A DNA stretch of 64,000 nt from Escherichia coli (GTDB taxonomy: Bacteria > Pseudomonadota > Gammaproteobacteria > Enterobacterales > Enterobacteriaceae): the NCBI RefSeq assembly GCF_044647545.1, contig NZ_CP172818.1; one strand, written 5' to 3'. This document shows positions 2,963 to 42,511 of the stretch, piece after piece. Numbering within the stretch: position 1 is the first letter of the stretch; each line of letters begins with the position of its first letter. The notes beneath the pieces are model-generated. The model ran no database searches and had not been told where the DNA came from. It worked only from the letters and a program-made list of their open reading frames with translations. Position numbers and translations under genes: made by a program.

Positions 2963-4117
<1,155 letters not shown>

Positions 4118-4123
4118 TTAACA

Positions 4124-4148
4124 GCGGAGATCCGTTAAGGATCTCCGC
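4124..4148 (+). terminator. perfect 10-bp GC-rich inverted repeat (gcggagatcc/ggatctccgc, 5-nt loop) 7 nt after srlD stop; no U-run
   Basis: read directly in sequence; lacks a T-tract so may be an attenuator or processing hairpin rather than an intrinsic terminator. Confidence 0.4.
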
Positions 4149-4162
4149 GAGACTAATAGAAT

Positions 4163-4191
4163 GCCTGATGCGCTACGCTTATCAGGCCTAC
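4163..4191. repeat. REP (repetitive extragenic palindromic) element
   Basis: gcctgatgcgctacgcttatcaggcctac matches the E. coli REP/PU motif (GCCTGATGCG...CTTATCAGGCCTAC). Confidence 0.6.
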
Positions 4192-4222
4192 AGGACTTCC
4201 GCCACTACATTAAGGAGAAGTT

Positions 4223-4582
4223 ATGGTATCCGCACTCATCACCGTCGCCGTTATCGCCTGGTGTGCGCAACTGGCCTTAGGCGGCTGGCAAATTTCTCGT
4301 TTTAACCGTGCCTTCGACACACTATGCCAGCAAGGGCGGGTTGGCGTGGGCCGTTCCAGCGGGCGCTTTAAACCGCGGGTCGTGGTCGCCATCGCCCTGG
4401 ACGATCAGCAGCGCATCGTCGACACCTTGTTTATGAAAGGACTGACCGTCTTCGCCCGACCGCAAAAAATTCCCGCAATTACCGGTATGCATGCGGGTGA
4501 TTTACAGCCCGATGTGATCTTTCCCCATGATCCACTATCACAGAATGCTCTATCATTGGCGCTTAAACTGAAACGTGGATAA
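4223..4582 (+). CDS. gutM: glucitol operon activator
   Basis: 119 aa ORF between srlD and srlR, conserved position. Confidence 0.85.
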   Translation: MVSALITVAVIAWCAQLALGGWQISRFNRAFDTLCQQGRVGVGRSSGRFKPRVVVAIALDDQQRIVDTLFMKGLTVFARPQKIPAITGMHAGDLQPDVIFPHDPLSQNALSLALKLKRG

Positions 4583-4648
4583 TTTCGTTGTGAATGTTAC
4601 TTGCTTGCGAAGTTATCATTTTGAAACCTAAATCAGGTAATCACGCCC

Positions 4649-5422
4649 ATGAAACCTCGTCAGCGTCAGGCCGCCATTCTGGAGTATCTGCAAAAGCAGG
4701 GTAAATGCTCGGTTGAAGAATTGGCGCAATACTTTGACACCACAGGCACAACCATTCGCAAAGATCTGGTCATTCTGGAACATGCCGGAACCGTCATTCG
4801 TACTTATGGCGGAGTGGTGTTGAATAAAGAGGAATCCGATCCGCCTATCGATCATAAAACACTCATCAACACCCACAAGAAAGAGCTGATTGCAGAAGCT
4901 GCCGTTAGTTTTATCCATGATGGCGATTCGATCATTCTTGATGCTGGCAGTACCGTTTTGCAGATGGTTCCCCTGCTCTCGCGCTTTAATAACATCACAG
5001 TGATGACCAACAGCCTGCATATCGTCAATGCGCTATCCGAACTGGATAACGAACAAACTATCCTGATGCCAGGCGGAACATTTCGTAAAAAATCGGCCTC
5101 ATTTCACGGGCAACTGGCAGAGAATGCCTTCGAGCATTTCACCTTCGATAAATTGTTTATGGGCACCGACGGCATCGATCTCAATGCGGGCGTAACCACG
5201 TTCAACGAGGTTTATACCGTCAGTAAGGCAATGTGCAATGCCGCGCGCGAAGTGATTTTGATGGCGGACTCATCAAAGTTTGGCCGTAAAAGCCCCAACG
5301 TAGTTTGCAGTCTTGAAAGCGTCGATAAGCTAATTACCGACGCAGGTATCGATCCAGCGTTTCGTCAGGCGCTGGAAAAGAAAGGGATCGACGTGATCAT
5401 AACCGGAGAGAGCAATGAGTGA
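4649..5422 (+). CDS. srlR: DeoR-family glucitol operon repressor
   Basis: 257 aa ORF with N-terminal DeoR-type HTH ([26 protein letters not shown]). Confidence 0.9.
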
Positions 5423-6380
5423 AGCACTACTGAACGCGGGACGTCAGACGTTAATGCTGGAGTTGCAGGAAGCAAGCCGTTTACCGGAACGTCTGGGCGA
5501 TGATTTTGTTCGCGCCGCCAATATCATCCTGCACTGCGAAGGCAAAGTGGTGGTTTCGGGAATTGGCAAATCGGGCCACATTGGTAAGAAAATCGCCGCA
5601 ACGCTTGCCAGCACCGGCACTCCTGCCTTTTTTGTCCATCCGGCAGAGGCATTGCACGGCGACCTGGGGATGATCGAAAGCCGCGATGTGATGCTGTTTA
5701 TCTCTTACTCCGGTGGCGCGAAGGAACTGGATCTGATTATTCCGCGTCTGGAAGATAAATCTATCGCGCTGCTGGCGATGACCGGCAAACCGACGTCACC
5801 GCTGGGCCTGGCGGCGAAAGCGGTGCTGGATATCTCCGTAGAACGCGAAGCCTGTCCGATGCACCTTGCGCCGACCTCCAGCACCGTGAATACCCTGATG
5901 ATGGGTGACGCGCTGGCGATGGCGGTCATGCAGGCGCGCGGATTTAATGAAGAAGATTTTGCCCGCTCCCACCCTGCTGGAGCACTGGGCGCTCGCTTGC
6001 TGAATAAAGTGCATCATCTGATGCGCCGTGATGACGCTATCCCGCAGGTAGCGTTAACCGCCAGCGTGATGGATGCGATGCTGGAACTCAGCCGCACTGG
6101 TCTGGGGCTGGTGGCGGTATGTGACGCTCAACAACAGGTACAAGGCGTCTTTACCGACGGCGATTTACGTCGCTGGCTGGTTGGCGGCGGTGCACTCACC
6201 ACGCCAGTCAATGAAGCGATGACGGTCGGCGGCACCACGTTGCAATCGCAAAGCCGTGCCATCGACGCCAAAGAAATCCTGATGAAACGCAAAATCACCG
6301 CCGCACCGGTAGTGGATGAAAACGGCAAACTCACCGGCGCAATTAACCTGCAGGATTTCTATCAGGCCGGGATTATTTAA
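5415..6380 (+). CDS. gutQ: D-arabinose 5-phosphate isomerase (SIS + tandem CBS domains)
   Basis: 321 aa ORF with SIS motif [11 protein letters not shown]; overlaps srlR by 8 bp. Confidence 0.9.
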
Positions 6381-10697: not shown

Positions 10698-12965
10698 TTA
10701 ACGCTTAGTTACGCCACATCCGCCACTATGCAGCATGCAGGAGCGCGCCGCAGCAATAACCCCCTGCCCCAGAGACAAGCCGCCATCACCCGCCGGTAAA
10801 CTCTGCGGAAAGAGTAATGTGAAATCAGCGAGATAATGCGCCAGGCGTGTACGCAGCAATCGGTTATGAATAACCCCACCGCTAAATACCAGCGTAGTGA
10901 TACCGCGCATCGTGGCCTGCTCACGCATCAACGCGGCAAAACCCTGCGCCAGCGCATCATGAAACGCCCACGCGCGTTGATTAACCGGTGCCTGCCAGTT
11001 CAGCCACTGCTGCCAGAAGGTGGCGAGATCCAGTTGATTGTCCACCAGCGGCATCGTCACCGGATGCGTCACTCCCTGGCTCGAAGCCGCCAGCGCCTCG
11101 AGGGCGCAAGCCGCTTCACCTTCATAACTTAACGTGGCTGGCGCACAGCCCAACGCCGCCGCTACGGCATCGAACAAACGTCCACACGATGATGCCAGCG
11201 GCGCGTTAATTCCACGCTCAATGGCCCGCGCCAGCACGCTCCAGTTTTGCTGTTGCACACTTGCCGTTTCAGGGTAATTCTGCCACTCCGGCACAAAGCG
11301 CAGGCACTGCGCCAGCAGGTTACGCCACGGCTGCTTTGCAGCCAAATCGCCCCCCGGAAGCGCCACCGCAGGCAAGCCGCCCAGGTGTTCACATTCGCGA
11401 TAGTTCACCCGCAGGCACTCGCCGCCCCATAAAGCGCCGTTCTCCCCCATACCGATACCGTCGAGCGTCAACGCAATGACATCACCGCCATCCAGCGGCC
11501 AGTGATGTTCTGCCAGACACGCCGCCGCATGAGCATGATGATGCAGCACCGTTTGCGTCGGCAGATTCATTTCGCGCGCCCACTGGCTGGAGACATAGCC
11601 CGGATGCGCGTCATGCACAACGTATTGCGGAGTGAAATCGTAGATGTTTTGCATCAGGCGTAACGCTTCGCGCCACTGCATCTGGATGCCATCGTCACTT
11701 AAATCGCCCAGATGCTGACTCAACACCGCTTGTTTACCGCGCACCAGGCAGAAGGTATTTTTCAGATCCGCGCCGAGACACAGCACAGGCGGAACATTTT
11801 TAAAGCCTGGAGGCAAAGCCAGCGCATCCGGCACATACCCCCGCGAACGGCGCAGCATTTCGCCGTTTTCGCGCACCACCGAATCATCCATCCGCTGCAC
11901 GATGTCGCGGTTATGTATCAAGAATCCGTCGGCAATCCCCTGCAAATCCGCCAGCGCCTGTTCGTTGCTGATAGCTGGTGGTTTACCGCTCAGGTTGCCG
12001 GAGGTCATCACCAGCGGGCATTGCAGTTCCTGTAACAGCAAATGTTGGAGCGGGTTCGCAGGCAACATCACCCCAACTTCGTTAAGGCCAGGGGCGATAT
12101 CATCACAAAGCTCAGGAACGTATTTTTTATCCACCAGAACAATCGGCGCGGCGGGCGTGGTAAGCAACTGGCGCGCAGCGTCAGGTAAACCGTCAGCCAC
12201 TGGCAACATGACCGCCAGCGGTTTCGCCGGGCGATGTTTGCGTGCCCGTAGTGTCGCCACCGCGTTACTGTTACGCGCATCGCAGGCGAGATGAAATCCG
12301 CCAATCCCTTTGATGGCGACAATGTTGCCCATTTTTAACTGTGCGATAGCCGCCTGTAATGCCGCCTCTTGTTCTGCATGTTCACCATGACTTACCCATT
12401 CAAGATGTGGGCCACACTCCGGGCAGGCCACCGGCTGGGCGTGGAAGCGACGATCGAGCGGGTCACAGTACTCTTTGTCACAAGCCGGACACAGCGGAAA
12501 CGCCGCCATCACGGTAAACGGGCGATCGTAAGGCATGGCGCGAATAATGGTGAAACGCGGGCCACAGTGGGTACAGTTGATAAACGGATAACGATAACGC
12601 CGCTCGCCTGGGGTATTCATTTCGGCAAGGCAAGCAGGGCAAGTGGCGGCATCCGGGACAATTTGCGTATTCATAGTGCCGCCTGTGCTCTGGCGGATAG
12701 TGAACTCAGTGGGCAGTTGTGACCAGATAAACGGCTCACGCTCGACGCTATCAATACGCGCCAGCGGCGGGCAGTGCTGATGCAACTGCACAAGAAACGT
12801 TTCCGGGTCTTCCAGCAGCCGGACTTCTACGCCATCGCCGTCATTACAGACATCGCCGTGAAGATTTAATTGCTGTGCCAGTTGCCAGACAAACGGACGA
12901 AAACCGACGCCCTGCACTTTGCCACGAATACGCAGTTGGACACCGCAAGATGTGTTTTTTGCCAT
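10698..12965 (-). CDS. hypF: hydrogenase maturation carbamoyltransferase HypF
   Basis: ORF 10698..13037 trimmed to [25 protein letters not shown] (acylphosphatase domain), followed by two CxxC-x18-CxxC zinc fingers, YrdC-like and Kae1-like domains. Confidence 0.88.
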
Positions 12966-13117
12966 TGAGTTATTCCCGCCATCATGAATTGCGTAACCCG
13001 CCCAGCCGGACACGACAGCGTCGTATCCGGCAATCACAGGTCGGCGATACTGCCCGCTTCGTATTCTACGAATATTTCCGGGAATTCCTTTGATGCCAGA
13101 ACAGTTCTGTAAGATTT

Positions 13118-18005: not shown

Positions 18006-18124
18006 AATCTGGGGTTTGGCATCAGAAAAAAAAAGCTGGTGGCCTGTGCAGGCAGCACTAAGCTCAATAAAAAAGCGCACATCCCTGTTCTGATGTTCAA
18101 TTCCCTGAATTCCTTACTGAAAAA

Positions 18125-26552: not shown

Positions 26553-27425
26553 ATGTGTACAACATGCGGTTGCGGTGAAGGCAACCTGTATATCGAGGGT
26601 GATGAACATAACCCTCATTCCGCGTTTCGTAGCGCGCCATTTGCCCCGGCGGCACGCCCGAAGATGAAAATCACCGGCATTAAAACGCCTGAATTTACCC
26701 CCAGCCAGACTGAAGAAGGCGACCTGCATTACGGTCATGGCGAAGCGGGCACTCACGCGCCGGGCATGAGCCAGCGTCGGATGCTGGAAGTCGAAATTGA
26801 CGTGCTGGACAAAAATAACCGTCTGGCTGAACGCAACCGCGCGCGCTTTGCTGCCCGCAAGCAACTGGTGCTCAACCTGGTTTCCAGCCCTGGTTCCGGT
26901 AAAACCACCCTGCTGACGGAAACCTTAATGCGCCTGAAAGACAGCGTTCCGTGCGCGGTTATTGAAGGCGATCAGCAAACCGTGAACGATGCCGCACGCA
27001 TTCGTGCTACCGGCACACCAGCGATTCAGGTGAATACCGGTAAAGGCTGCCATCTCGACGCTCAGATGATTGCCGACGCCGCACCGCGCCTGCCACTGGA
27101 CGATAACGGTATTCTGTTTATCGAAAACGTTGGCAACCTGGTATGCCCGGCCAGCTTCGATCTCGGTGAAAAACACAAAGTGGCGGTGCTTTCCGTTACC
27201 GAAGGTGAAGACAAACCGCTGAAATATCCGCACATGTTTGCCGCCGCCTCGCTGATGCTGCTCAACAAAGTTGACTTGCTGCCGTATCTCAATTTCGACG
27301 TTGAGAAGTGCATCGCCTGCGCCCGTGAAGTCAATCCAGAAATTGAAATCATCCTTATTTCCGCCACCAGCGGCGAAGGGATGGACCAGTGGCTGAACTG
27401 GCTGGAGACACAGCGATGTGCATAG
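26553..27425 (+). CDS. hypB: hydrogenase nickel-binding GTPase HypB
   Basis: 290 aa ORF; N-terminal [10 protein letters not shown] metal site, P-loop GSGKTTL. Confidence 0.9.
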
Positions 27426-27688
27426 GCGTTCCCGGCCAGATCCGCACCATTGACGGCAACCAGGCGAAAGTCGACGTCTGCGGCATTCAGCGCGATGTCG
27501 ATTTAACGTTAGTCGGCAGCTACGATGAAAACGGTCAGCCACGCGTAGGCCAGTGGGTACTGGTTCACGTTGGCTTTGCCATGAGCGTAATTAATGAAGC
27601 CGAAGCGCGCGACACTCTCGACGCCTTACAAAACATGTTTGACGTTGAGCCGGATGTCGGTGCGCTGTTGTATGGCGAGGAAAAATAA
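27416..27688 (+). CDS. hypC: hydrogenase maturation chaperone HypC
   Basis: ORF trimmed to [15 protein letters not shown] (conserved N-terminal Cys2); 90 aa. Confidence 0.88.
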
Positions 27689-28809
27689 TGCGTTTTGTTG
27701 ATGAATATCGCGCGCCGGAACAGGTGATGCAGTTAATTGAGCATCTGCGCGAACGTGCTTCACATCTCTCTTACACCGCCGAACGCCCTCTGCGGATTAT
27801 GGAAGTGTGTGGCGGTCATACCCACGCCATTTTTAAATTCGGCCTCGACCAGTTGCTGCCGGAAAACGTTGAGTTTATCCACGGTCCCGGTTGCCCGGTG
27901 TGTGTACTGCCGATGGGTAGAATCGACACCTGCGTGGAGATTGCCAGCCATCCGGAAGTCATCTTCTGTACCTTTGGCGACGCCATGCGCGTACCAGGGA
28001 AACAGGGTTCGCTGTTACAGGCAAAAGCGCGCGGTGCCGATGTGCGCATCGTTTACTCGCCGATGGATGCGTTGAAACTGGCGCAGGAGAATCCAACCCG
28101 CAAAGTGGTGTTCTTCGGCTTAGGTTTTGAAACCACCATGCCGACCACCGCCATCACTCTGCAACAGGCAAAAGCCCGCGATGTGCAGAATTTTTACTTC
28201 TTCTGCCAGCACATTACGCTCATCCCAACACTGCGCAGTTTGCTGGAACAGCCGGATAACGGTATCGACGCGTTCCTCGCGCCCGGCCACGTCAGTATGG
28301 TGATTGGCACTGATGCCTATAATTTTATCGCCAGCGATTTTCATCGTCCGCTGGTGGTGGCTGGTTTCGAACCGCTTGATCTACTGCAAGGCGTGGTCAT
28401 GCTGGTGGAGCAGAAAATAGCGGCCCACAGCAAGGTAGAGAATCAGTATCGTCGGGTGGTGCCGGATGCCGGTAACCTGCTGGCGCAACAGGCGATTGCC
28501 GATGTGTTCTGTGTCAACGGCGACAGCGAATGGCGCGGCTTAGGCGTGATTGAATCTTCTGGTGTACACCTGACGCCGGATTATCAACGATTCGATGCCG
28601 AAGCGCATTTCCGCCCGGCACCGCAGCAGGTCTGCGATGACCCGCGCGCACGTTGTGGAGAAGTATTAACGGGCAAATGTAAGCCGCATCAATGCCCGCT
28701 GTTTGGTAACACCTGTAATCCTCAAACCGCGTTTGGTGCGCTGATGGTTTCCTCCGAAGGAGCGTGCGCCGCGTGGTATCAGTATCGTCAGCAGGAGAGT
28801 GAAGCGTGA
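27688..28809 (+). CDS. hypD: hydrogenase maturation Fe-S protein HypD
   Basis: 373 aa ORF with CGxH, GPGCPVC and C-terminal CxxC-x-CPxxGxC motifs. Confidence 0.9.
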   Translation: MRFVDEYRAPEQVMQLIEHLRERASHLSYTAERPLRIMEVCGGHTHAIFKFGLDQLLPENVEFIHGPGCPVCVLPMGRIDTCVEIASHPEVIFCTFGDAMRVPGKQGSLLQAKARGADVRIVYSPMDALKLAQENPTRKVVFFGLGFETTMPTTAITLQQAKARDVQNFYFFCQHITLIPTLRSLLEQPDNGIDAFLAPGHVSMVIGTDAYNFIASDFHRPLVVAGFEPLDLLQGVVMLVEQKIAAHSKVENQYRRVVPDAGNLLAQQAIADVFCVNGDSEWRGLGVIESSGVHLTPDYQRFDAEAHFRPAPQQVCDDPRARCGEVLTGKCKPHQCPLFGNTCNPQTAFGALMVSSEGACAAWYQYRQQESEA

Positions 28810-29816
28810 ATAATATCCAACTCGCCCACGGTAGCGGCGGCCAGGCGATGCAGCAATTAATCAACAGCCTGTTTATGGAAGCCTTTGCCAACCCATGGCT
28901 GGCAGAGCAGGAAGATCAGGCCCGTCTTGATCTGGCGCAGCTGGTAGCGGAAGGCGACCGTCTGGCGTTCTCCACCGACAGCTACGTCATCGACCCGCTG
29001 TTCTTTCCTGGTGGCAATATCGGCAAGTTGGCGATTTGCGGCACCGCGAACGACGTAGCGGTCAGTGGCGCTATTCCGCGTTATCTCTCCTGTGGATTTA
29101 TCCTTGAAGAAGGATTACCGATGGAGACGCTGAAAGCCGTTGTGACCAGCATGGCAGAAACCGCCCGCGCGGCAGGCATTGCCATCGTTACTGGCGACAC
29201 TAAAGTGGTGCAGCGCGGCGCGGCAGATAAACTGTTTATCAACACCGCTGGTATGGGCGCAATTCCGGCGAATATTCACTGGGGCGCACAGACGCTAACC
29301 GCAGGCGATGTATTGCTGGTTAGCGGTACACTCGGCGACCACGGGGCGACTATCCTTAACCTGCGTGAGCAGCTGGGGCTGGATGGCGAACTGGTCAGCG
29401 ACTGTGCGGTACTAACGCCGCTTATTCAGACGCTGCGTGACATTCCCTGCGTGAAAGCGCTGCGTGATGCCACCCGTGGTGGTGTAAACGCGGTGGTACA
29501 TGAGTTCGCGGAAGCCTGCGGTTGTGGTATTGAAATTTCAGAAGCGGCACTGCCGGTTAAACCTGCTGTGCGCGGCGTTTGCGAACTGCTGGGACTGGAC
29601 GCCCTTAACTTTGCCAACGAAGGCAAACTGGTGATCGCCGTTGAACGCAACGCGGCAGAGCAAGTGCTGGCAGCGTTACATTCCCATCCACTGGGAAAAG
29701 ACGCGGCGCTGATTGGTGAAGTGGTGGAACGTAAAGGTGTTCGTCTTGCCGGTCTATATGGCGTGAAACGAACCCTCGATTTACCACACGCCGAACCGCT
29801 TCCGCGTATATGCTAA
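28806..29816 (+). CDS. hypE: hydrogenase maturation carbamoyl dehydratase HypE
   Basis: 336 aa ORF, PurM-like fold, C-terminal PRIC. Confidence 0.9.
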   Translation: MNNIQLAHGSGGQAMQQLINSLFMEAFANPWLAEQEDQARLDLAQLVAEGDRLAFSTDSYVIDPLFFPGGNIGKLAICGTANDVAVSGAIPRYLSCGFILEEGLPMETLKAVVTSMAETARAAGIAIVTGDTKVVQRGAADKLFINTAGMGAIPANIHWGAQTLTAGDVLLVSGTLGDHGATILNLREQLGLDGELVSDCAVLTPLIQTLRDIPCVKALRDATRGGVNAVVHEFAEACGCGIEISEAALPVKPAVRGVCELLGLDALNFANEGKLVIAVERNAAEQVLAALHSHPLGKDAALIGEVVERKGVRLAGLYGVKRTLDLPHAEPLPRIC

Positions 29817-29889
29817 TAAAATTCTAAATCTCCTATAGTTAGTCAATGACCTTTTGCACCGCTTTGCGGTGCTTTCCTGGAAGAACAAA

Positions 29890-31968
29890 ATGTCATATAC
29901 ACCGATGAGTGATCTCGGACAACAAGGGTTGTTCGACATCACTCGGACACTATTGCAGCAGCCCGATCTGGCCTCGCTGTGTGAGGCTCTTTCGCAACTG
30001 GTAAAGCGTTCTGCGCTCGCCGACAACGCGGCTATTGTGTTGTGGCAAGCGCAGACTCAACGTGCGTCTTATTACGCGTCGCGTGAAAAAGACACCCCCA
30101 TTAAATATGAAGACGAAACTGTTCTGGCACACGGTCCGGTACGCAGCATTTTGTCGCGCCCTGATACGCTGCATTGCAGTTACGAAGAATTTTGTGAAAC
30201 CTGGCCGCAGCTGGCCGCAGGTGGGCTATACCCCAAATTTGGTCACTATTGCCTGATGCCACTGGCGGCGGAAGGGCATATTTTTGGTGGCTGTGAATTT
30301 ATTCGTTATGACGATCGCCCGTGGAGTGAAAAAGAGTTCAATCGCCTGCAAACATTTACGCAGATCGTTTCTGTCGTCACCGAACAAATCCAGAGCCGCG
30401 TCGTTAACAATGTCGACTATGAGTTGTTATGCCGGGAACGCGATAACTTCCGCATCCTGGTCGCCATCACCAACGCGGTGCTTTCCCGCCTGGATATGGA
30501 CGAACTGGTCAGCGAAGTCGCCAAAGAAATCCATTACTATTTCGACATTGACGATATCAGCATTGTCTTACGCAGCCACCGTAAAAACAAACTCAACATC
30601 TACTCCACTCACTATCTTGATAAACAGCATCCCGCCCACGAACAGAGCGAAGTCGATGAAGCCGGAACCCTCACCGAACGCGTCTTCAAAAGTAAAGAGA
30701 TGCTGTTGATTAATCTCCACGAGCGGGACGATTTAGCCCCCTATGAACGCATGTTGTTCGACACCTGGGGCAACCAGATTCAAACCTTGTGCCTGTTACC
30801 GCTGATGTCTGGCGACACCATGCTGGGCGTGCTGAAACTGGCGCAATGCGAAGAGAAAGTATTTACCACTACCAATCTGAGCTTACTGCGCCAGATTGCC
30901 GAACGTGTGGCAATCGCTGTCGATAACGCCCTCGCCTATCAGGAAATTCATCGTCTGAAAGAACGGCTGGTTGATGAAAACCTCGCCCTGACCGAGCAGC
31001 TCAACAATGTTGATAGTGAATTTGGCGAGATTATTGGCCGCAGCGAAGCCATGTACAGCGTACTTAAACAAGTTGAAATGGTGGCGCAAAGTGACAGTAC
31101 CGTGCTGATCCTCGGTGAAACTGGTACAGGTAAAGAGCTGATTGCCCGCGCGATCCATAATCTCAGTGGGCGTAATAATCGCCGCATGGTCAAAATGAAC
31201 TGCGCGGCGATGCCTGCCGGATTGCTGGAGAGCGATCTATTTGGTCATGAGCGTGGGGCTTTTACCGGTGCCAGCGCTCAGCGCATTGGTCGTTTTGAAC
31301 TGGCGGATAAAAGCTCACTATTCCTCGATGAAGTGGGCGATATGCCGCTGGAGTTACAGCCGAAGTTGCTGCGTGTATTACAGGAACAGGAGTTTGAACG
31401 TCTTGGCAGCAACAAAATCATTCAGACGGACGTACGTTTAATTGCCGCGACTAACCGCGATCTGAAAAAAATGGTCGCAGACCGAGAGTTCCGTAGCGAT
31501 CTCTATTACCGCCTGAACGTATTCCCGATCCACCTGCCGCCACTACGCGAGCGTCCGGAAGATATTCCGCTGCTGGCGAAAGCCTTTACCTTCAAAATTG
31601 CCCGTCGTCTGGGGCGCAATATCGACAGCATTCCTGCCGAGACGCTGCGCATCCTGAGCAACATGGAATGGCCGTGCAACGTGCGTGAGCTGGAAAACGT
31701 CATTGAGCGCGCGGTATTGCTAACACGCGGCAACGTGCTGCAGCTGTCATTGCCAGATATTGCTTTACCAGAACCTGAAACGCCGCCTGCCGCAACGGTT
31801 GTCGCCCAGGAGGGCGAAGATGAATATCAGTTGATTGTTCGCGTGCTGAAAGAAACCAACGGCGTGGTTGCCGGGCCTAAAGGCGCTGCGCAACGTCTGG
31901 GGCTGAAACGCACGACTCTGCTGTCACGGATGAAGCGACTGGGAATTGATAAATCGGCATTGATTTAA
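29890..31968 (+). CDS. fhlA: formate hydrogenlyase sigma54-dependent transcriptional activator
   Basis: ORF 29854..31968 trimmed to MSYTPMSDLGQQGLF; two GAF domains, AAA+ with GETGTGKE and GAFTGA, C-terminal HTH. Confidence 0.92.
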   Translation: MSYTPMSDLGQQGLFDITRTLLQQPDLASLCEALSQLVKRSALADNAAIVLWQAQTQRASYYASREKDTPIKYEDETVLAHGPVRSILSRPDTLHCSYEEFCETWPQLAAGGLYPKFGHYCLMPLAAEGHIFGGCEFIRYDDRPWSEKEFNRLQTFTQIVSVVTEQIQSRVVNNVDYELLCRERDNFRILVAITNAVLSRLDMDELVSEVAKEIHYYFDIDDISIVLRSHRKNKLNIYSTHYLDKQHPAHEQSEVDEAGTLTERVFKSKEMLLINLHERDDLAPYERMLFDTWGNQIQTLCLLPLMSGDTMLGVLKLAQCEEKVFTTTNLSLLRQIAERVAIAVDNALAYQEIHRLKERLVDENLALTEQLNNVDSEFGEIIGRSEAMYSVLKQVEMVAQSDSTVLILGETGTGKELIARAIHNLSGRNNRRMVKMNCAAMPAGLLESDLFGHERGAFTGASAQRIGRFELADKSSLFLDEVGDMPLELQPKLLRVLQEQEFERLGSNKIIQTDVRLIAATNRDLKKMVADREFRSDLYYRLNVFPIHLPPLRERPEDIPLLAKAFTFKIARRLGRNIDSIPAETLRILSNMEWPCNVRELENVIERAVLLTRGNVLQLSLPDIALPEPETPPAATVVAQEGEDEYQLIVRVLKETNGVVAGPKGAAQRLGLKRTTLLSRMKRLGIDKSALI

Positions 31969-32011
31969 CAGATGTGTTATACTCGATCAACATTCAATGA
32001 AAGGAGGCAGT

Positions 32012-32059
32012 ATGGCAGTTTCAGCAAGAAATCAATTAACCGGAACAGTTACGCAGTAG
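32012..32059 (+). pseudogene. 15-codon ORF with molbindin (Mop/TOBE)-like N-terminus MAVSARNQLTGTVTQ behind a strong RBS; truncated
   Basis: aaggagg 6 nt upstream of ATG; MxxSARNxLxGxV is the typical start of Mop domains; in-frame TAG after 15 codons. Confidence 0.35.
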
Positions 32060-32139
32060 CAATGGGCGCTTGAATGATGAAGTAGAACCGACGCCGCAGG
32101 TGTGCAAAACTTGCAATTGTTACACACAGCAGCCAGCAG

Positions 32140-32390
32140 GCTCTTGGCCGGGAAAAAGGAAAAAAAGGCGCCCCCCCGAAAAAGCCCCCGGGGGGAAACG
32201 CGGAAAAGAAAAGCGGGGGGGAAACTCCCCCCCCCCACCCGCTGCGCGGCGCGCGGGCAAACACCCGCGAAGGGCGGGGGGAGCCCCCTCCAAAAAAAAA
32301 AAGGGGGGGTTTTAAAATGGGGGGGAAAAAAAAAAAAAAGGAAGGAAAAAAAAACCCCCTAAAAAAAAAACACCAAAAAGGAAAAATTTG
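32140..32390. repeat. low-complexity block dominated by homopolymer runs (A up to 14, C up to 10, G up to 7)
   Basis: read directly; composition atypical for E. coli chromosome; resembles degraded base-calls. Confidence 0.8.
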
Positions 32391-32412
32391 CCGGAGAGTA
32401 TGGCTCTCCGGC
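32390..32412 (-). terminator. intrinsic terminator candidate for ygbA
   Basis: gccggagag-tatgg-ctctccggc hairpin 5 nt after ygbA stop, followed on the minus strand by a T-rich tract. Confidence 0.55.
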
Positions 32413-32416
32413 AGAT

Positions 32417-32761
32417 TTATTTCTTTGGACGATATTTTTCTGGCAACTCCGGCACCGGACGCTTGTCATCGATGAGATGACGCACGGTTAAGATCGGATG
32501 ACGCCACAGCATTCGCGGCCCGGCCCAACGCATAATCTGTTTCATCTCTTCACGCTTTGCTGGCTGGTAACAGTGCACCGGACACTGCTTACAGGCTGGT
32601 TTCTCTTCGCCGAACACACATTTATCCAGCCGCTTTTGCGCGTAGGCAAACAGCGCGTCGTAATGCTCCGGCTCCGCTGACGCCTGCGGGCATTTCGCTT
32701 GATAAAGATCGATCATTTTTTTAATCGTCAGTTTTTCACGAGAGATACGCTTGCCGGACAT
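32417..32761 (-). CDS. ygbA: Cys-rich small protein YgbA (nitrous oxide-stimulated promoter family)
   Basis: 114 aa ORF with CxxxC...CxxC...CxxCxxHC cysteine pattern. Confidence 0.85.
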   Translation of the reverse strand: MSGKRISREKLTIKKMIDLYQAKCPQASAEPEHYDALFAYAQKRLDKCVFGEEKPACKQCPVHCYQPAKREEMKQIMRWAGPRMLWRHPILTVRHLIDDKRPVPELPEKYRPKK

Positions 32762-33047
32762 GCTGCCTCCATACTCTTAAGGTGTATTTATATTACAACT
32801 TAATTTGAAAGGGGACTATGGCTCTGAAGGAGGAGGTTTATTCAACCGACGCAATTTTGCGTACTTGCTTCATAAGCATCACGCAAAAGCTGCAAAACAG
32901 CATCTTTCCCGGAATCACCATCAAGAACTCGCCGTTCGCTTCTTCCCCTGAAATGATTAACTCCGGTATCATGTGCGCCTTATGTGATAACAACGAAAAT
33001 AAAAACCATCACACCCCATTTAATATCAGGGAACCGGACATAACCCC

Positions 33048-35609
33048 ATGAGTGCAATAGAAAATTTCGATGCCCATACGCCCATGATGCAGCAGTATCT
33101 CAAGCTGAAAGCCCAGCATCCCGAGATCCTGCTGTTTTACCGGATGGGCGACTTTTATGAACTGTTTTATGACGACGCAAAACGGGCGTCGCAACTGCTG
33201 GATATTTCACTGACCAAACGCGGTGCTTCAGCGGGAGAGCCAATCCCGATGGCGGGGATTCCCTACCATGCGGTGGAAAACTACCTCGCCAAACTGGTGA
33301 ACCAGGGCGAATCGGTTGCTATTTGTGAACAGATTGGCGATCCGGCGACCAGCAAAGGGCCGGTCGAGCGCAAAGTTGTCCGTATCGTTACGCCGGGCAC
33401 CATCAGCGATGAAGCGCTGTTGCAGGAACGTCAGGACAACCTGCTGGCGGCTATCTGGCAGGACAGTAAAGGTTTCGGCTACGCAACGCTGGATATCAGT
33501 TCCGGTCGTTTTCGCCTGAGCGAACCGGCGGACCGCGAAACGATGGCGGCAGAACTGCAACGTACGAATCCAGCGGAATTACTGTATGCGGAAGATTTCG
33601 CCGAGATGTCGCTGATTGAAGGTCGCCGCGGCCTGCGTCGTCGCCCGCTGTGGGAGTTTGAAATCGACACCGCGCGCCAGCAGTTAAACTTGCAATTTGG
33701 CACTCGCGATCTGGTCGGTTTTGGCGTCGAGAACGCGCCGCGCGGACTTTGTGCCGCCGGTTGTCTGTTGCAATATGCGAAAGATACCCAACGCACGACC
33801 CTGCCGCATATTCGTTCTATCACTATGGAACGTGAGCAGGACAGCATCATTATGGATGCCGCGACGCGTCGTAACCTGGAAATCACCCAGAATCTGGCGG
33901 GTGGTGCGGAAAATACGCTGGCTTCTGTGCTCGACTGCACCGTCACGCCGATGGGCAGCCGTATGCTGAAACGCTGGCTGCATATGCCAGTGCGCGATAC
34001 CCGCGTCTTGCTTGAGCGCCAGCAAACTATTGGCGCATTGCAGGATTTCACCGCCGAGCTGCAGCCGGTACTGCGTCAGGTCGGCGACCTGGAACGTATT
34101 CTGGCGCGTCTGGCTTTACGAACCGCTCGCCCACGCGATCTGGCCCGTATGCGTCACGCTTTCCAGCAACTGCCGGAGCTGCGTGCACTATTAGAAAATG
34201 TCGAAAGCGCACCGGTACAGGCGCTGCGTGAGAAGATGGGCGAGTTTGCCGAACTGCGCGATCTGCTGGAGCGGGCCATTATCGACACACCGCCGGTACT
34301 GGTGCGCGACGGTGGTGTTATCGCGCCGGGCTATAACGAAGAGCTGGATGAGTGGCGGGCGCTGGCTGACGGCGCGACCGATTATCTGGAGCGTCTGGAA
34401 ATCCGCGAGCGTGAACGTACCGGCCTGGACACGCTGAAAGTCGGCTTTAACGCGGTTCATGGTTATTACATTCAGATCAGCCGTGGACAAAGCCATCTGG
34501 CACCCATCAACTATATGCGTCGCCAGACGCTGAAAAACGCCGAACGCTACATTATTCCAGAGCTAAAAGAGTATGAAGACAAAGTACTCACCTCGAAAGG
34601 TAAAGCACTGGCACTGGAAAAACAGCTTTATGAAGAGTTGTTCGACCTGCTGTTGCCGCATCTGGAAGCGTTGCAACAGAGCGCGAGCGCGCTGGCGGAA
34701 CTCGACGTGCTGGTGAACCTGGCGGAACGGGCCTATACCCTGAACTACACCTGCCCGACCTTTATTGATAAACCTGGCATTCGCATTACCGAAGGCCGCC
34801 ATCCAGTGGTTGAACAGGTACTGAACGAACCGTTTATCGCTAACCCGCTAAACCTGTCGCCACAGCGCCGCATGTTGATCATTACCGGTCCGAACATGGG
34901 CGGTAAAAGTACCTATATGCGCCAGACCGCGTTGATTGCGCTGATGGCGTATATCGGCAGCTACGTACCGGCGCAAAAAGTCGAGATTGGCCCGATCGAC
35001 CGTATCTTTACCCGCGTAGGCGCGGCAGACGATCTGGCATCCGGGCGTTCAACCTTTATGGTGGAGATGACCGAAACCGCCAATATTTTACATAACGCCA
35101 CCGAATATAGTCTGGTGTTGATGGATGAGATCGGGCGTGGAACGTCCACTTACGATGGTCTGTCGCTGGCGTGGGCATGCGCGGAAAATCTGGCAAATAA
35201 GATCAAAGCGTTGACGCTGTTTGCTACCCACTATTTCGAGCTGACCCAGTTACCGGAGAAAATGGAAGGCGTCGCCAACGTGCATCTCGATGCGCTGGAG
35301 CACGGCGACACCATTGCCTTTATGCACAGCGTGCAGGATGGCGCGGCGAGCAAAAGCTACGGCCTGGCGGTTGCAGCTCTGGCAGGCGTGCCAAAAGAGG
35401 TTATTAAGCGCGCACGGCAAAAACTGCGTGAGCTGGAAAGCATTTCGCCGAACGCCGCCGCTACACAGGTTGATGGTACGCAGATGTCCCTGCTTTCTGC
35501 GCCAGAAGAAACGTCGCCTGCGGTCGAGGCACTGGAAAACCTCGACCCGGATTCACTGACTCCGCGTCAGGCGCTGGAGTGGATTTATCGGTTGAAGAGT
35601 CTGGTGTAA
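33048..35609 (+). CDS. mutS: DNA mismatch repair protein MutS
   Basis: 853 aa ORF; N-terminal mismatch-binding GDFYELF, Walker [10 protein letters not shown]. Confidence 0.95.
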
Positions 35610-35714: not shown

Positions 35715-36371
35715 ATGCCATCTACACGCTATCAAAAAATTAATGCCCATCACTATCGTTATATATGGGCCGTTGGTGATATTCATGGTGACTATCAATT
35801 ATTACAATCCCGCTTACATCAACTCTCTTTTTGCCCTGAAACCGACTTACTTATTTCCACAGGCGATAATATTGATCGTGGGCCGAAGAGTCTTAACGTG
35901 CTGCACCTGCTAAACCAACCCTGGTTTACGTCGGTTAAAGGCAACCACGAAGCGATGGCGTTGGATGCATTCGAAACTGGCGATGGAAATATGTGGCTTG
36001 CCAGCGGTGGTGACTGGTTTTTCGATTTAAATGATTCAGAGCAACAAGCGGCAATAGATCTGTTGCTGAAATTCCATCACCTTCCACATATTATTGAAGT
36101 TACTAACGACAACACAAAATATGTCATCACACATGCAGATTATCCGGGGAATGAATATCTCTTTGGTAAAGAAATAGCGGAGAGCGAATTACTCTGGCCT
36201 GTTGATCGTGTGCAGAAATCGCTTAATGGCGAGTTACAACAAATAAACGGCGCTGATTATTTTATATTTGGACATATGGTGTTTGATAACATTCAGACGT
36301 TCGCAAACCAGATTTATATTGATACCGGATCGCCGAAAAGCGGGCGGCTGTCATTTTATAAAATAAAGTAG
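35715..36371 (+). CDS. pphB: serine/threonine protein phosphatase 2 (calcineurin-like metallophosphatase)
   Basis: 218 aa ORF with GDIHGD and GDNIDRGP metallophosphatase motifs. Confidence 0.9.
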   Translation: MPSTRYQKINAHHYRYIWAVGDIHGDYQLLQSRLHQLSFCPETDLLISTGDNIDRGPKSLNVLHLLNQPWFTSVKGNHEAMALDAFETGDGNMWLASGGDWFFDLNDSEQQAAIDLLLKFHHLPHIIEVTNDNTKYVITHADYPGNEYLFGKEIAESELLWPVDRVQKSLNGELQQINGADYFIFGHMVFDNIQTFANQIYIDTGSPKSGRLSFYKIK

Positions 36372-36372
36372 T

Positions 36373-36398
36373 CTCATGCTTCTTCTGTGAAGCATGAG
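36373..36398. terminator. 10-bp perfect hairpin (ctcatgcttc-ttctgt-gaagcatgag) between convergent pphB and ygbI
   Basis: read in sequence 2 nt after pphB stop. Confidence 0.5.
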
Positions 36399-36399
36399 T

Positions 36400-37150
36400 A
36401 ACCGAGATGTTCTGCAGGCCCCTACTCATTTTTCGCTACCAGCAAAGAGAGATCCTGCTTCGCCAGCACGCAACTGGCGCTCTCCGGCGAAGCCGCATAT
36501 CTAATAATCTGATCAAACTAGTAATGGTAACGCCAGCCATGTCGCCACCTGACCATATTTCGTCGCATCACAGACCAAAACTCGCTGGCGGCTGGCACTG
36601 GCAATCGCCCGTTTCACCGTGACTTTATCTTTCCGCTGGCGTAAATCCCCCGCACACTCCATGACGATGCAGAAATAAAAACCTGATCAATCATCAGGCT
36701 GCGCAGCATGGTCGCAGCGGCTTCCCCGACACAGGAACGGTTTTCCCGACACACTGCACCGCCAGTGTGAATAATTGTGCAATTACTGTTGTCAGCAAGT
36801 AGTTCGCAATAACGAAATCGTTTGTGACCACAGTCAGTGACTCCATGTGAATCAGATGCTGTGCTATCGCTAACGTGGTCGTTCCCGCATCCAGATAGAT
36901 ACAACTTTCCGGCTGAACAGACTTTTGCCGCCAGCTTGCCAATAGCCGCTTTTTGCGTCATTGCCAGCGCAGTTTTACCTAAGTTCGCCATGCGCCACGC
37001 GTCCCGGAGACTGGACGCCTCCGGACACCCAGCACAACGGCTCCCTGCTGCTCCAGTTTTTGTAAATCCCGACGAATGGTCATATGTGACACATTACTCA
37101 TTCTGTCCGTTAGTTCAGCAATACTGACAATGCCTTTTTCAGCTTATCTC
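36400..37150 (-). pseudogene. ygbI: DeoR-family regulator YgbI, reading frame broken in several places
   Basis: minus-strand translation gives DeoR HTH fragment VSHMTIRRDLQKLEQQGAVVLGV and a C-terminal sugar-binding fragment (ORF 36614..36991) in different frames separated by stops. Confidence 0.5.
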
Positions 37151-37382
37151 AAGGATCATCTGGCGACGCTCTACGGGTATCAACTTTTGCTCCTTCCTTT
37201 GTCCTGCTGACATTCTACGCTATTTGCCTGCGAAACGTGCGCGGCGCAACTAACGCTTAGTTCACATAAAATAACACACAATGTTAATTTATGTGAATCA
37301 GCTCACCATATCGTTATCTTCCAGCGCTTATATTCACAATATCAAACAAAATATCACTTAAATTAACCAACAAGGAGAGCAG

Positions 37383-38291
37383 ATGAAAACGGGATCTGAG
37401 TTTCATGTCGGTATCGTTGGCTTAGGGTGAATGGGAATGGGAGCAGCACTGTCATGTGTCACGAGCAGGTCTTTCTACCTGGGGCGCAGACCTGAACAGC
37501 AATGCCTGCGCTACGTTGAAAGAGGCAGGTGCTTGCGGGGTTGCTTGATAACGCCGCGACGTTTGCCGAAAAACTGGACATTATGCTGGTGCTGGTGGTA
37601 AATGCGGCCCAGGTTAAACAGGTGCTGTTTGGTGAAACGGCGTTTGCACAACATCTGAAACCCGGTACGGCAGTAATGGTTTCTTCCACTATCGCTAGTG
37701 CTGATCGCGCAAGAAATTGCTACCGCTCTGGCTGGATTCGATCTGGAAATGCTGGATGCGCCAGTTTCTGGTGGTGCAGTAAAAGCCGCTAACGGTGAAA
37801 TGACTGTCATGGCCTCCGGTAGCGATATTGCCTTTGAACGACTGGCACCCGTGCTGGAAGCCGTTGCCGGAAAAGTTTATCGCATAGGTGCAGAACCGGG
37901 ACTAAAGAGTTCGACCATTAAAGTTCTTCACCAGTTAGCGGGCGTACATATTGCTGCCGGAGCCGAAGCGATGGCACTTGCAGCCCGTGGGATCCCGCTG
38001 GATGTGATGTATGACGTCGTGACCAATGCCGCCGGAAATTCCTGGATGTTCGAAAACCAGATACGTCATGTGGTGGATGGCGATTACACCCCGCATTCAG
38101 CCGTCGATATTTTTGTTAAGGATCTTGGTCTGGTTGCCGATACAGCCAAAGCCCTGCACTTCCCGCTGCCATTGGCCTCAACAGCATTGAATATGTTCAC
38201 CAGCGCCAGTAACGCGGGTTACGGGAAAGAAGACGATAGCGCAGTTATCAAGATTTTCTCTGGCATCACTCTACCGGGAGCGAAATCATGA
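37383..38291 (+). pseudogene. ygbJ: 3-hydroxyisobutyrate dehydrogenase-family enzyme YgbJ (putative L-threonate dehydrogenase) with premature stop and compensating frameshifts
   Basis: ATG 37383 then GIVGLG Rossmann start, TGA at codon 16 (37428); middle segment readable in frame of ORF 37529..37792 and C-terminal 197 aa in ORF 37698..38291; total span 909 nt equals an intact 302-aa gene. Confidence 0.55.
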
Positions 38292-39454
38292 TCAAGATTG
38301 GCGTTATCGCCGATGATTTTACCGGCGCGACGGATATCGCCAGTTTTCTGGTGGAAAACGGTCTACCAACGGTACAAATTAACGGTGTTCCAACAGGTAA
38401 AATGCCGGAAGCAATCGACGCACTGGTGATCAGCCTGAAAACGCGCTCCTGTCCAGTGGTTGAAGCCACACAGCAATCGCTGGCGGCTCTGAGCTGGTTG
38501 CAACAGCAAGGTTGCAAACAGATCTATTTCAAATACTGCTCTACTTTCGACAGTACGGCGAAAGGTAATATTGGCCCGGTTACCGATGCCTTAATGGATG
38601 CTCTCGACACGCCGTTTACGGTCTTCTCTCCGGCCCTGCCGGTCAACGGACGTACGGTTTATCAGGGGTATTTGTTCGTAATGAATCAACTGCTGGCCGA
38701 ATCCGGGATGCGCCATCACCCGGTAAATCCCATGACCGACAGCTATCTTCCCCGTCTGGTTGAAGCGCAATCCACAGGGCGCTGCGGCGTCGTTTCGGCA
38801 CATGTTTTCGAACAAGGTGTGGATGCCGTTCGTCAAGAGCTGGCTCGCTTACAGCAAGAGGGCTACCGCTACGCGGTGCTTGATGCGCTGACCGAACACC
38901 ATCTGGAAATTCAGGGAGAAGCCTTGCGCGATGCCCCACTGGTAACGGGCGGTTCTGGTCTGGCGATTGGCCTGGCCCGGCAGTGGGCGCAAGAAAACGG
39001 TAACCAGGCTCGCAAAGCAGGGCGTCCGCTCGCTGGGCGCGGCGTAGTGCTCTCCGGTTCATGCTCTCAAATGACCAACCGCCAGGTAGCACATTACCGT
39101 CAAATTGCACCAGCCCGTGAAGTTGATGTGGCACGCTGCCTCTCAATTGAAACTCTGGCCGCTTATGCACACGAACTGGCAGAGTGGGTTCTGGGCCAGG
39201 AAAGTGTACTTGCTCCACTGGTTTTTGCCACCGCCAGCACTGACGCATTGGCAGCAATTCAACAGCAATACGGTGCACAAAAAGCCAGTCAGGCAGTAGA
39301 AACACTGTTTTCTCAACTAGCGGCGCGGTTAGCAGCGGAAGGCGTGACACGCTTTATTGTCGCAGGCGGTGAGACCTCCGGCGTAGTCACACAGAGCCTG
39401 GGAATAAAAGGGTTTCATATTGGCCCAACCATTTCCCCGGCGTGCCGTGGGTAA
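38288..39454 (+). CDS. ygbK: four-carbon acid sugar kinase family protein YgbK (putative 3-oxo-tetronate kinase)
   Basis: 388 aa ORF MIKIGVIADDFTGATDIASFL (DUF1537 N-terminus); 4-bp overlap with ygbJ stop. Confidence 0.8.
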   Translation: MIKIGVIADDFTGATDIASFLVENGLPTVQINGVPTGKMPEAIDALVISLKTRSCPVVEATQQSLAALSWLQQQGCKQIYFKYCSTFDSTAKGNIGPVTDALMDALDTPFTVFSPALPVNGRTVYQGYLFVMNQLLAESGMRHHPVNPMTDSYLPRLVEAQSTGRCGVVSAHVFEQGVDAVRQELARLQQEGYRYAVLDALTEHHLEIQGEALRDAPLVTGGSGLAIGLARQWAQENGNQARKAGRPLAGRGVVLSGSCSQMTNRQVAHYRQIAPAREVDVARCLSIETLAAYAHELAEWVLGQESVLAPLVFATASTDALAAIQQQYGAQKASQAVETLFSQLAARLAAEGVTRFIVAGGETSGVVTQSLGIKGFHIGPTISPACRG

Positions 39455-39545
39455 ACGCACTGGATAAGCCTGTCTCACTCGCCCTTAAATCTGGCAACTT
39501 CGGTGATGACGCCTTTTTTTCACGAGCCCAAAGAGAGTTTTTATC

Positions 39546-40184
39546 ATGAGCGATTTCGCAAAAGTAGAGCAGTCTTTGCGAGAGGAGATGACGCGGATTG
39601 CCAGTTCATTCTTTCAGCGCGGCTATGCAACCGGTTCGGCTGGCAATCTGTCGCTGCTTTTACCTGACGGGAATTTACTGGCGACACCGACAGGTTCATG
39701 CCTGGGCAATCTCGATCCGCAGCGGCTTTCCAAAGTCGCCGCGGATGGCGAATGGTTAAGTGGTGACAAACCCTCGAAAGAGGTGCTCTTTCATCTGGCG
39801 CTGTATCGCAACAATCCGCGCTGTAAAGCGGTGGTGCATTTGCACAGCACATGGTCGACGGCGCTTTCCTGCCTGCAAGGGCTGGACAGCAGCAACGTTA
39901 TTCGTCCGTTCACACCATACGTGGTGATGCGGATGGGAAATGTCCCGCTGGTGCCTTATTACCGACCGGGCGATAAACGCATCGCACAGGATCTGGCGGA
40001 ACTGGCAGCAGACAATCAGGCTTTTTTACTGGCAAATCATGGCCCAGTGGTTTGCGGTGAAAGCCTGCAAGAAGCCGCCAACAATATGGAAGAGCTGGAG
40101 GAAACGGCAAAGCTGATTTTTATTCTCGGTGACCGCCCGATCCGTTATCTGACCGCAGGTGAAATTGCGGAATTAAGGAGTTAA
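39546..40184 (+). CDS. ygbL: class II aldolase/adducin-family protein YgbL (putative 3-oxo-tetronate 4-phosphate decarboxylase)
   Basis: 212 aa ORF, class II aldolase fold signature (HLHS, GS). Confidence 0.8.
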
Positions 40185-40188
40185 TGCA

Positions 40189-40965
40189 ATGCCTCGTTTT
40201 GCAGCTAATTTATCCATGATGTTCACCGAAGTGCCTTTTATTGAACGCTTCGCCGCAGCGCGAAAAGCCGGGTTCGATGCTGTGGAATTTCTGTTTCCCT
40301 ATAACTACTCCACCCTGCAAATCCAAAAGCAACTGGAGCAAAACCATCTGACACTGGCGCTGTTCAATACCGCTCCCGGAGATATTAATGCGGGGGAATG
40401 GGGATTATCCGCCCTTCCCGGACGTGAGCACGAAGCACACGCAGACATCGACCTGGCACTGGAATATGCATTGGCGCTCAATTGTGAACAAGTCCATGTG
40501 ATGGCAGGCGTCGTGCCCGCTGGCGAAGATGCTGAACGGTACCGGGCAGTATTTATCGATAATATCCGCTACGCTGCCGACCGCTTTGCGCCACACGGCA
40601 AGCGAATATTAGTTGAAGCACTCAGCCCCGGCGTTAAGCCTCATTATCTCTTCTCCAGCCAGTATCAGGCACTGGCTATTGTTGAAGAGGTTGCGCGAGA
40701 TAACGTGTTTATTCAACTAGATACTTTTCATGCGCAAAAAGTAGATGGCAACCTGACGCATTTAATCCGCGACTACGCCGGGAAATATGCGCACGTACAA
40801 ATTGCCGGACTACCTGATCGACATGAACCGGACGATGGAGAAATCAACTATCCGTGGCTGTTCCGCCTGTTCGATGAGGTGGGATATCAGGGCTGGATCG
40901 GTTGTGAATATAAACCTCGTGGCCTCACCGAAGAAGGGCTTGGCTGGTTTGACGCCTGGCGCTAA
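40189..40965 (+). CDS. ygbM: hydroxypyruvate isomerase-like TIM-barrel protein YgbM (putative 2-oxo-tetronate isomerase)
   Basis: 258 aa ORF, xylose isomerase-like TIM barrel. Confidence 0.8.
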
Positions 40966-41053
40966 TTCGTTAAATCCCTAATTACAACGTACCCATACAT
41001 CCCCCCATCTACGGATGGGGTAGGTTAACTATAACTTTCAGACAGGGTTTCCC

Positions 41054-42418
41054 ATGTCCACAATTACATTGTTATGCATTGCGTTAGCTGGCGTAATCAT
41101 GCTGTTGCTGCTGGTCATCAAGGCAAAGGTACAACCATTCGTTGCTTTGCTCCTCGTCAGCCTGTTAGTCGCACTTGCGGCAGGTATACCGGCGGGCGAA
41201 GTGGGTAAAGTGATGATCGCCGGGATGGGCGGTGTGCTTGGTTCCGTCACTATTATTATTGGTCTGGGCGCTATGCTGGGGCGTATGATCGAACACTCTG
41301 GTGGTGCAGAGTCACTGGCTAATTATTTCAGTCGCAAGTTAGGTGACAAACGAACTATCGCTGCGCTGACTCTGGCAGCGTTCTTCCTCGGTATTCCCGT
41401 CTTCTTTGATGTCGGCTTTATTATTCTTGCGCCAATCATTTACGGTTTTGCCAAGGTTGCCAAAATATCGCCACTCAAATTTGGCCTGCCTGTCGCTGGG
41501 ATCATGCTCACTGTTCACGTGGCGGTACCGCCGCATCCAGGCCCTGTCGCCGCAGCGGGGTTACTCCACGCAGACATCGGCTGGCTAACCATCATCGGTA
41601 TTGCGATTTCTATTCCCGTAGGGGTTGTTGGCTACTTTGCAGCGAAAATAATCAATAAGCGCCAATATGCGATGTCAGTAGAAGTACTGGAACAGATGCA
41701 ACTGGCTCCGGCCAGTGAGGAAGGCGCGACAAAATTAAGCGATAAAATAAATCCACCGGGCGTCGCGCTGGTCACCTCGCTAATTGTTATTCCTATCGCG
41801 ATTATCATGGCGGGTACGGTTTCCGCAACACTGATGCCGCCTTCGCATCCCCTGCTTGGTACGCTACAGCTGATCGGCTCACCAATGGTAGCTCTAATGA
41901 TTGCGCTGGTGCTGGCATTCTGGTTATTGGCTTTACGTCGCGGCTGGAGCTTACAACACACCAGCGACATTATGGGCTCAGCGCTTCCTACTGCGGCGGT
42001 AGTGATTTTGGTTACTGGTGCTGGAGGGGTATTTGGCAAAGTGCTGGTGGAATCGGGCGTCGGCAAAGCCCTTGCCAACATGCTACAAATGATTGACCTG
42101 CCTCTGTTACCAGCCGCATTTATTATTTCACTGGCGCTGCGTGCATCGCAGGGGTCAGCAACCGTAGCAATACTGACAACCGGCGGGTTACTCTCAGAAG
42201 CGGTGATGGGATTGAATCCGATTCAGTGCGTATTGGTGACGCTGGCAGCCTGCTTTGGTGGGCTTGGTGCGTCACATATTAATGACTCAGGGTTCTGGAT
42301 TGTGACCAAATATCTGGGGTTGTCGGTAGCAGACGGTCTGAAAACCTGGACAGTGTTAACGACCATTCTCGGTTTTACCGGATTCTTAATTACCTGGTGC
42401 GTATGGGCGGTAATTTGA
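41054..42418 (+). CDS. ygbN: GntP-family acid sugar transporter
   Basis: 454 aa polytopic membrane ORF. Confidence 0.85.
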   Translation: MSTITLLCIALAGVIMLLLLVIKAKVQPFVALLLVSLLVALAAGIPAGEVGKVMIAGMGGVLGSVTIIIGLGAMLGRMIEHSGGAESLANYFSRKLGDKRTIAALTLAAFFLGIPVFFDVGFIILAPIIYGFAKVAKISPLKFGLPVAGIMLTVHVAVPPHPGPVAAAGLLHADIGWLTIIGIAISIPVGVVGYFAAKIINKRQYAMSVEVLEQMQLAPASEEGATKLSDKINPPGVALVTSLIVIPIAIIMAGTVSATLMPPSHPLLGTLQLIGSPMVALMIALVLAFWLLALRRGWSLQHTSDIMGSALPTAAVVILVTGAGGVFGKVLVESGVGKALANMLQMIDLPLLPAAFIISLALRASQGSATVAILTTGGLLSEAVMGLNPIQCVLVTLAACFGGLGASHINDSGFWIVTKYLGLSVADGLKTWTVLTTILGFTGFLITWCVWAVI

Positions 42419-42424
42419 CCTTAA

Positions 42425-42457
42425 TAAAAAGGTCCGATGGGCATCGGACCTTTTATT
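42425..42457. terminator. bidirectional intrinsic terminator between ygbN and rpoS
   Basis: aaaa-ggtccgat-gggc-atcggacc-ttttatt: 8-bp GC-rich stem flanked by A-run and T-run. Confidence 0.8.
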
Positions 42458-42511
42458 GTGCACAGAAAAGGCCAGCCTCATAAGAGACTGGCCTTTATGA
42501 CAGATGCTTAC

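Follow-up and report, generated by a model that had tools for sequence, protein, structure and literature searches.

Between fhlA and ygbA of the Escherichia coli DNA analysed here (one stretch of 64 kb, which we call the window), a block of homopolymer runs at 32140-32390 stands where close relatives carry an ordinary gene for a small TOBE/di-Mop protein. Our reading of the sequence is that this tract is almost certainly an artefact of the sequence record, all possible technical causes being taken together. Very probably, to judge by the pattern of its errors, it is the low-quality 3′ tail of a plus-strand read, most probably a capillary one, that ran across the ordinary TOBE gene. The initial annotation had proposed degraded base-calling or an assembly patch, and this proposal is supported by the intact 429-bp gene that we find at this place in strains whose flanking DNA is 100% identical to that of the window.

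The composition of the block sets it far apart from its surroundings. Runs of at least 4 bases hold 60% of its bases, against 5.8% across the 64 kb of the window, which bears out the earlier description of a homopolymer-rich block at these coordinates. Of the 25 runs of at least 7 bases that the 64 kb contain, ten lie in it (the longest include A14, A11, A10 and C10), and nowhere else in the 64 kb do runs take up over 35% of the bases per 100 bp. On that per-100-bp measure run content peaks at 83% in the block, against a window median of 4%, and is far above that of the remainder of the window. T is nearly missing: the base counts are A 100, G 74, C 62 and T 15. The open reading frames (ORFs) predicted across the block are rich in Lys, Gly and Pro and had earlier been set aside as nonsense; they are indeed by-products of miscalled sequence, and none of the seven is present, as an exact sequence, among some 15 billion deposited proteins. 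Similarly, the region 31900-32850 holds 10 terminator-like matches where 1.6 were expected; 7 of the 10 are pairings of G-runs with C-runs inside the block, and most of the 10 are products of the miscalling. The coordinates of the block and of its neighbours are collected in Table 1.

Table 1. Features of the fhlA-ygbA region in window coordinates, with the intervals compared with E. coli DFL.5.
Feature	Position	Strand	Basis or remark
fhlA, formate hydrogenlyase transcriptional activator, intact, 692 aa from ATG	29890..31968	+	ORF; DNA 100% identical to DFL.5
TOBE/di-Mop (molbindin-type) gene remnant	32012..32378 (3′ end approximate)	+	Collinear alignment to WP_000301062.1 loci
Probable corrupted interval, full extent	31975..32385	+	About 411 called bases for about 474 true bases
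Run-rich block, probably where calling in the read tail is worst	32140..32390	.	Run statistics
Putative join between degraded read and good sequence	32385..32386	.	Single-step fall in error, about 60% to 0%
GC-rich hairpin, genuine, terminator-like on both strands	32389..32413	.	Separates the TOBE gene and ygbA, which converge
ygbA, nitrous-oxide-stimulated promoter family protein, intact, 114 aa	32417..32761	-	
Left flank, 0 differences from DFL.5	26890-31969 (5,081 bp)		
Divergent interval, 147 differences from DFL.5	31970-32390 (421 bp)		
Right flank, 0 differences from DFL.5	32391-34905 (2,515 bp)		

The nature of the underlying locus became clear from a megablast search of 5,426 complete E. 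coli genomes with the segment 31900-32480 as the query. Matches were found in 5,419 of these genomes, but coverage of the query never exceeded 62%, and in none of the 5,419 did the match extend into the block. The best matches consisted of two pieces, which spanned 644 bp in the subject genome against 581 bp in the window, and the matched genomes annotate a "TOBE domain-containing protein" between fhlA and ygbA. An alignment to complete E. coli genomes, which had been suggested as a check, thus finds clean, complex sequence at this position, and this argues for an artefact. In intact relatives the TOBE gene is 429 bp long and encodes 142 aa, and pairwise alignment shows the block to be collinear with it; the block had been taken for intergenic DNA, which is wrong, as it overlies this TOBE/Mop gene with its ATG at 32012. 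The upstream region, the Shine-Dalgarno sequence, the ATG and the 13 initial codons are all identical to those of the intact allele. Beyond these, the loss of a G at 32051 puts the gene out of frame and brings in a stop at 32057-32059, so that the ORF as written in the window ends ...MAVSARNQLTGTVTQ* and is untranslatable past codon 15; we regard this frameshift as a fault of the record rather than of the strain.

Among deposited sequences the counterpart is the E. coli TOBE/di-Mop gene of WP_000301062.1 (which also goes under the name 'molybdopterin-binding protein'). The window copy resembles it in position, strand and 5′ sequence, with collinear homology that can be traced to the end of the gene, and differs from it in being frameshifted at 32051. 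Two Mop domains (TIGR00638, E 4.1e-42, 142 bits against a cutoff of 55) are found in the intact protein, which also carries PF03459 (TOBE). With two Mop/TOBE domains in about 140 aa, the product of the intact allele has the make-up of a molbindin, and it belongs to the "molbindin"-type family of small molybdate/tungstate-binding proteins.

Upstream of the gene, a sigma-70-like promoter match (a match to consensus only) lies at 31954-31983, directly 3′ of the fhlA stop and 5′ of the TOBE gene; it comprises TCGGCA, an 18-nt spacer and TATACT with an extended -10 TG. As the base lost at 31975 falls inside this spacer, the true spacer would be 19 nt. Downstream, the hairpin at 32389-32413 has the same sequence in all reference loci. 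It had been described as the terminator of ygbA: the hairpin itself is real, but it is not exclusive to ygbA, because a T-rich tail follows it on the plus strand and it therefore fits the TOBE gene at least as well.

The TOBE gene is present full-length between fhlA and ygbA in 1,890 of the 5,426 complete E. coli genomes and, where it adjoins fhlA in these genomes, it is always chromosomal and single-copy. The remaining genomes, about 65% of the total, have a short allele of 335 bp without the TOBE gene; the laboratory-evolved strain AML003_ev03 (4.63 Mb) is one of them. There are just these two alleles at the locus, the intact gene or the short gene-less one, and the frequency of the latter explains why the first reading of the window expected plain intergenic DNA here. 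The FhlA protein of the window occurs unchanged in 1,096 collection blocks, and each of the 26 contigs with identical FhlA that we examined has an intact 142-aa TOBE gene; the same intact gene is found in all 10 of the loci listed with identical YgbA, from 72 contigs read. One locus, in GCA_964040975.1 (OZ039084.1; positions 3857-5935 of locus L011), has fhlA split into ORFs of 387 and 302 aa beside an intact TOBE gene, and this split is either a real disruption or a frameshift error of that record. It is suggestive that the TOBE gene adjoins the activator of the formate hydrogenlyase regulon, which is molybdoenzyme-dependent.

For a base-by-base comparison we relied upon near-identical relatives, chiefly E. 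coli DFL.5, in which the intact TOBE gene lies at positions 5124-5552 of the locus (L013). Two structural differences aside, the window and DFL.5 are 99.98-100% identical over about 45 kb. The top-ranked match had been only 97% identical, and we considered whether the window came from a more divergent lineage; this was rejected, because the ranking favoured coverage and DFL.5 is identical at the level just given. Against DFL.5 the differences around the block are confined to a single interval (Table 1): the first is at 31975, the last is at 32385, and perfect identity is back at ATTTGCCGG (32386). The earlier reading had thus placed the block correctly but began it too late, as the corruption sets in about 165 bp before 32140; it was also right that normal sequence resumes abruptly, although at 32386 and not at 32390. 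The near-identical genomes lack the tract altogether and have normal sequence in its place. Outside the tract the window is essentially error-free, with the exception of a singleton base deletion at 10742, which means that the record is not poor throughout.

Within 31975-32385 the errors are not evenly spread. Counted per 40 alignment columns in the plus direction they number 1, 0, 1, 3, 10, 9, 16, 19, 20, 19, 20, 32 and 25, and then 0: a ramp that starts with isolated drop-outs, rises to about 25% error and then to about 50%, and ends in collapse. This is a directional gradient that is closed by an abrupt join. The earliest errors are single missing Gs, at 31975, 32051 and 32070. Further in, 56 of the 64 substitutions give a wrong base equal to the true base immediately adjacent to it (±1), against a mean of 30.7 and a maximum of 43 in 2,000 permutations. 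No substitution or insertion yields T, and a true T is kept in 48% of cases against 88% for A. The net loss is 63 bases, mostly in the last 80 columns. Such a spectrum, with smearing of neighbours, bias against one channel and under-calling, resembles that of an instrument. Even the worst 215 bases (32172-32386) can still be aligned locally, with a score of 34, to the 3′ portion of the true gene, where our controls peaked at 19 (random E. coli segments), 16 (shuffles) and 14 (shuffles of run order); the block is thus a degraded collinear copy of the gene rather than unrelated DNA.

Nor does the tract recur elsewhere. Neither a set of one genome per GTDB species nor the JGI metagenome contigs gave an exact match to a 56-mer taken from the most complex part of the block. 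Exact reproduction of the tract by independent sequence would have spoken against an artefact, and none was found in the genomes, metagenomes or proteins searched.

We propose that an ordinary TOBE/di-Mop gene of 429 bp lies between fhlA and ygbA in the strain, and that in the record its place is taken by the low-quality 3′ tail of one plus-strand read. This read would most probably be a capillary dye-terminator (Sanger) read, made for finishing or gap closing and primed in or upstream of fhlA; we infer both the platform and this history of gap patching from the shape of the errors. Late in a capillary run the peaks broaden, the signal falls and errors of spacing appear. With the peaks less well resolved and the signal weakening, the base-caller would first have lost single G peaks; later, copies of neighbouring bases would have replaced true ones, giving rise to homopolymer runs, with T being under-called and, finally, too few bases being called at all. 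The next good contig, which would start just before the hairpin at 32389-32413, would then have been attached to the tail at 32385/32386. The likeness to the tail of a Sanger read extends to error that rises on one strand, early drop-outs of single peaks, errors that copy neighbours, the loss of one dye channel, terminal under-calling and a step back to perfect sequence. In two respects the tract differs from such a tail: it has neither N nor ambiguity codes, and the other sequence in the 64 kb is essentially free of error.

Some other technical origin, such as the unpolished consensus of low-coverage long reads, an error in a finishing edit or patch, or corruption in the preparation of the record or of the window, is unlikely. 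All the evidence for a non-genomic source of the tract would apply to it equally, the platform being a matter of inference; however, a smooth ramp over about 400 nt, the loss of a single dye (T) and terminal under-calling make up the classic pattern of a late capillary read. Errors in nanopore, 454 and Ion Torrent data are mostly changes in the length of existing homopolymers, and to our knowledge none of these platforms converts complex sequence into new runs through substitutions that copy a neighbour. Were such an origin to apply instead of the capillary tail, the verdict of an artefact would be unchanged. That the block is real DNA, the TOBE gene having been destroyed in situ by a directional, neighbour-copying mutation to leave a hypermutable tract next to fhlA, is highly improbable. 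The sequence does stand in the record, and the gene is dispensable, about 65% of complete genomes being without it, so that its loss would be tolerable; if real, the tract could be a hypermutable element beside the formate-regulon activator gene. Against this, a divergence of about 35% in 421 bp and of zero in 7.6 kb of flanks would require a strictly local process, one which must also be directional, copy neighbours, avoid T and end at one base, and we know of no mutational mechanism that gives local change of this directional, neighbour-copying and T-free kind. No intermediate or related allele was found in the 5,426 complete genomes, the GTDB species representatives or the JGI metagenomes. 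The real hypermutable simple-sequence tract that the initial annotation had entertained is not supported.

It is scarcely credible that foreign DNA of low complexity, arriving as an insertion or a replacement cassette, displaced the gene. The right-hand boundary is abrupt, as an inserted segment might have it, but the left edge is a gradient and not a junction, over its whole length the block follows the resident gene collinearly and with significant homology, and repeats, target duplications and coding capacity are all lacking. Two further candidates were rejected. A natural pseudogene should have diverged in proportion to its flanks, or at least by undirected mutation; here 421 bp hold 147 differences while 7,596 bp of flanks hold none, and the changes are graded and copy neighbours. 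A phase-variable contingency locus was discarded because no tract of variable length exists at this locus in the 5,419 genomes. The likeness to the contingency loci of Haemophilus and Neisseria, namely long homopolymer runs near a regulatory gene, is superficial only: such loci have one defined repeat tract, which varies in length between strains within conserved surroundings, whereas the block consists of many runs of A, C and G, has no counterpart elsewhere and is homologous to a gene of complex sequence.

The comparison with DFL.5 also brought out differences at other places in the window. At 10742, in the 3′ end of hypF (minus strand, ORF 10698-13037), the window has one base fewer than DFL.5, which changes the C-terminus of HypF from ...AARILHAA* to other residues. 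The resulting variant protein is not on record, and the full-length matches listed from complete E. coli genomes all have the extra base (98.9% identity, 87 against 86 bp); the deletion is a frameshift private to this genome or else another small error in the record. Between hycI and ascB, DFL.5 has 562 bp more than the window, holding a hypothetical gene and a gene for an HTH-domain protein; the corresponding junction in the window, 18031/18032 (18026-18034), lies within a run of nine As. This is a presence/absence difference between genomes that are otherwise near-identical.

In the variable segment between mutS and rpoS (36371-42465), a well-known hot spot of recombination, the window has about 6.1 kb against about 2.9 kb in DFL.5, and the flanks are 100% identical to DFL.5 on both sides. 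Among the matches of the window segment to other strains is a gene, annotated ygbN, for a GntP-family transporter; the DFL.5 segment holds MarR and hydroxyarylic acid decarboxylase genes. No complete E. coli genome covers the 24.9-kb stretch 17500-42400 in full at 99% identity or above, and in none are this backbone and this mutS-rpoS segment combined at that level of identity.

The importance of the tract is one of data hygiene only, and it has no biological consequence. As it stands, the record misrepresents about 470 bp, and a real gene beside fhlA, that of the TOBE/di-Mop molybdate-binding protein, loses its annotation there. Surveys of pan-genomes, pseudogenes or simple repeats that draw on this record would count a gene loss and a hypermutable tract, neither of them genuine.
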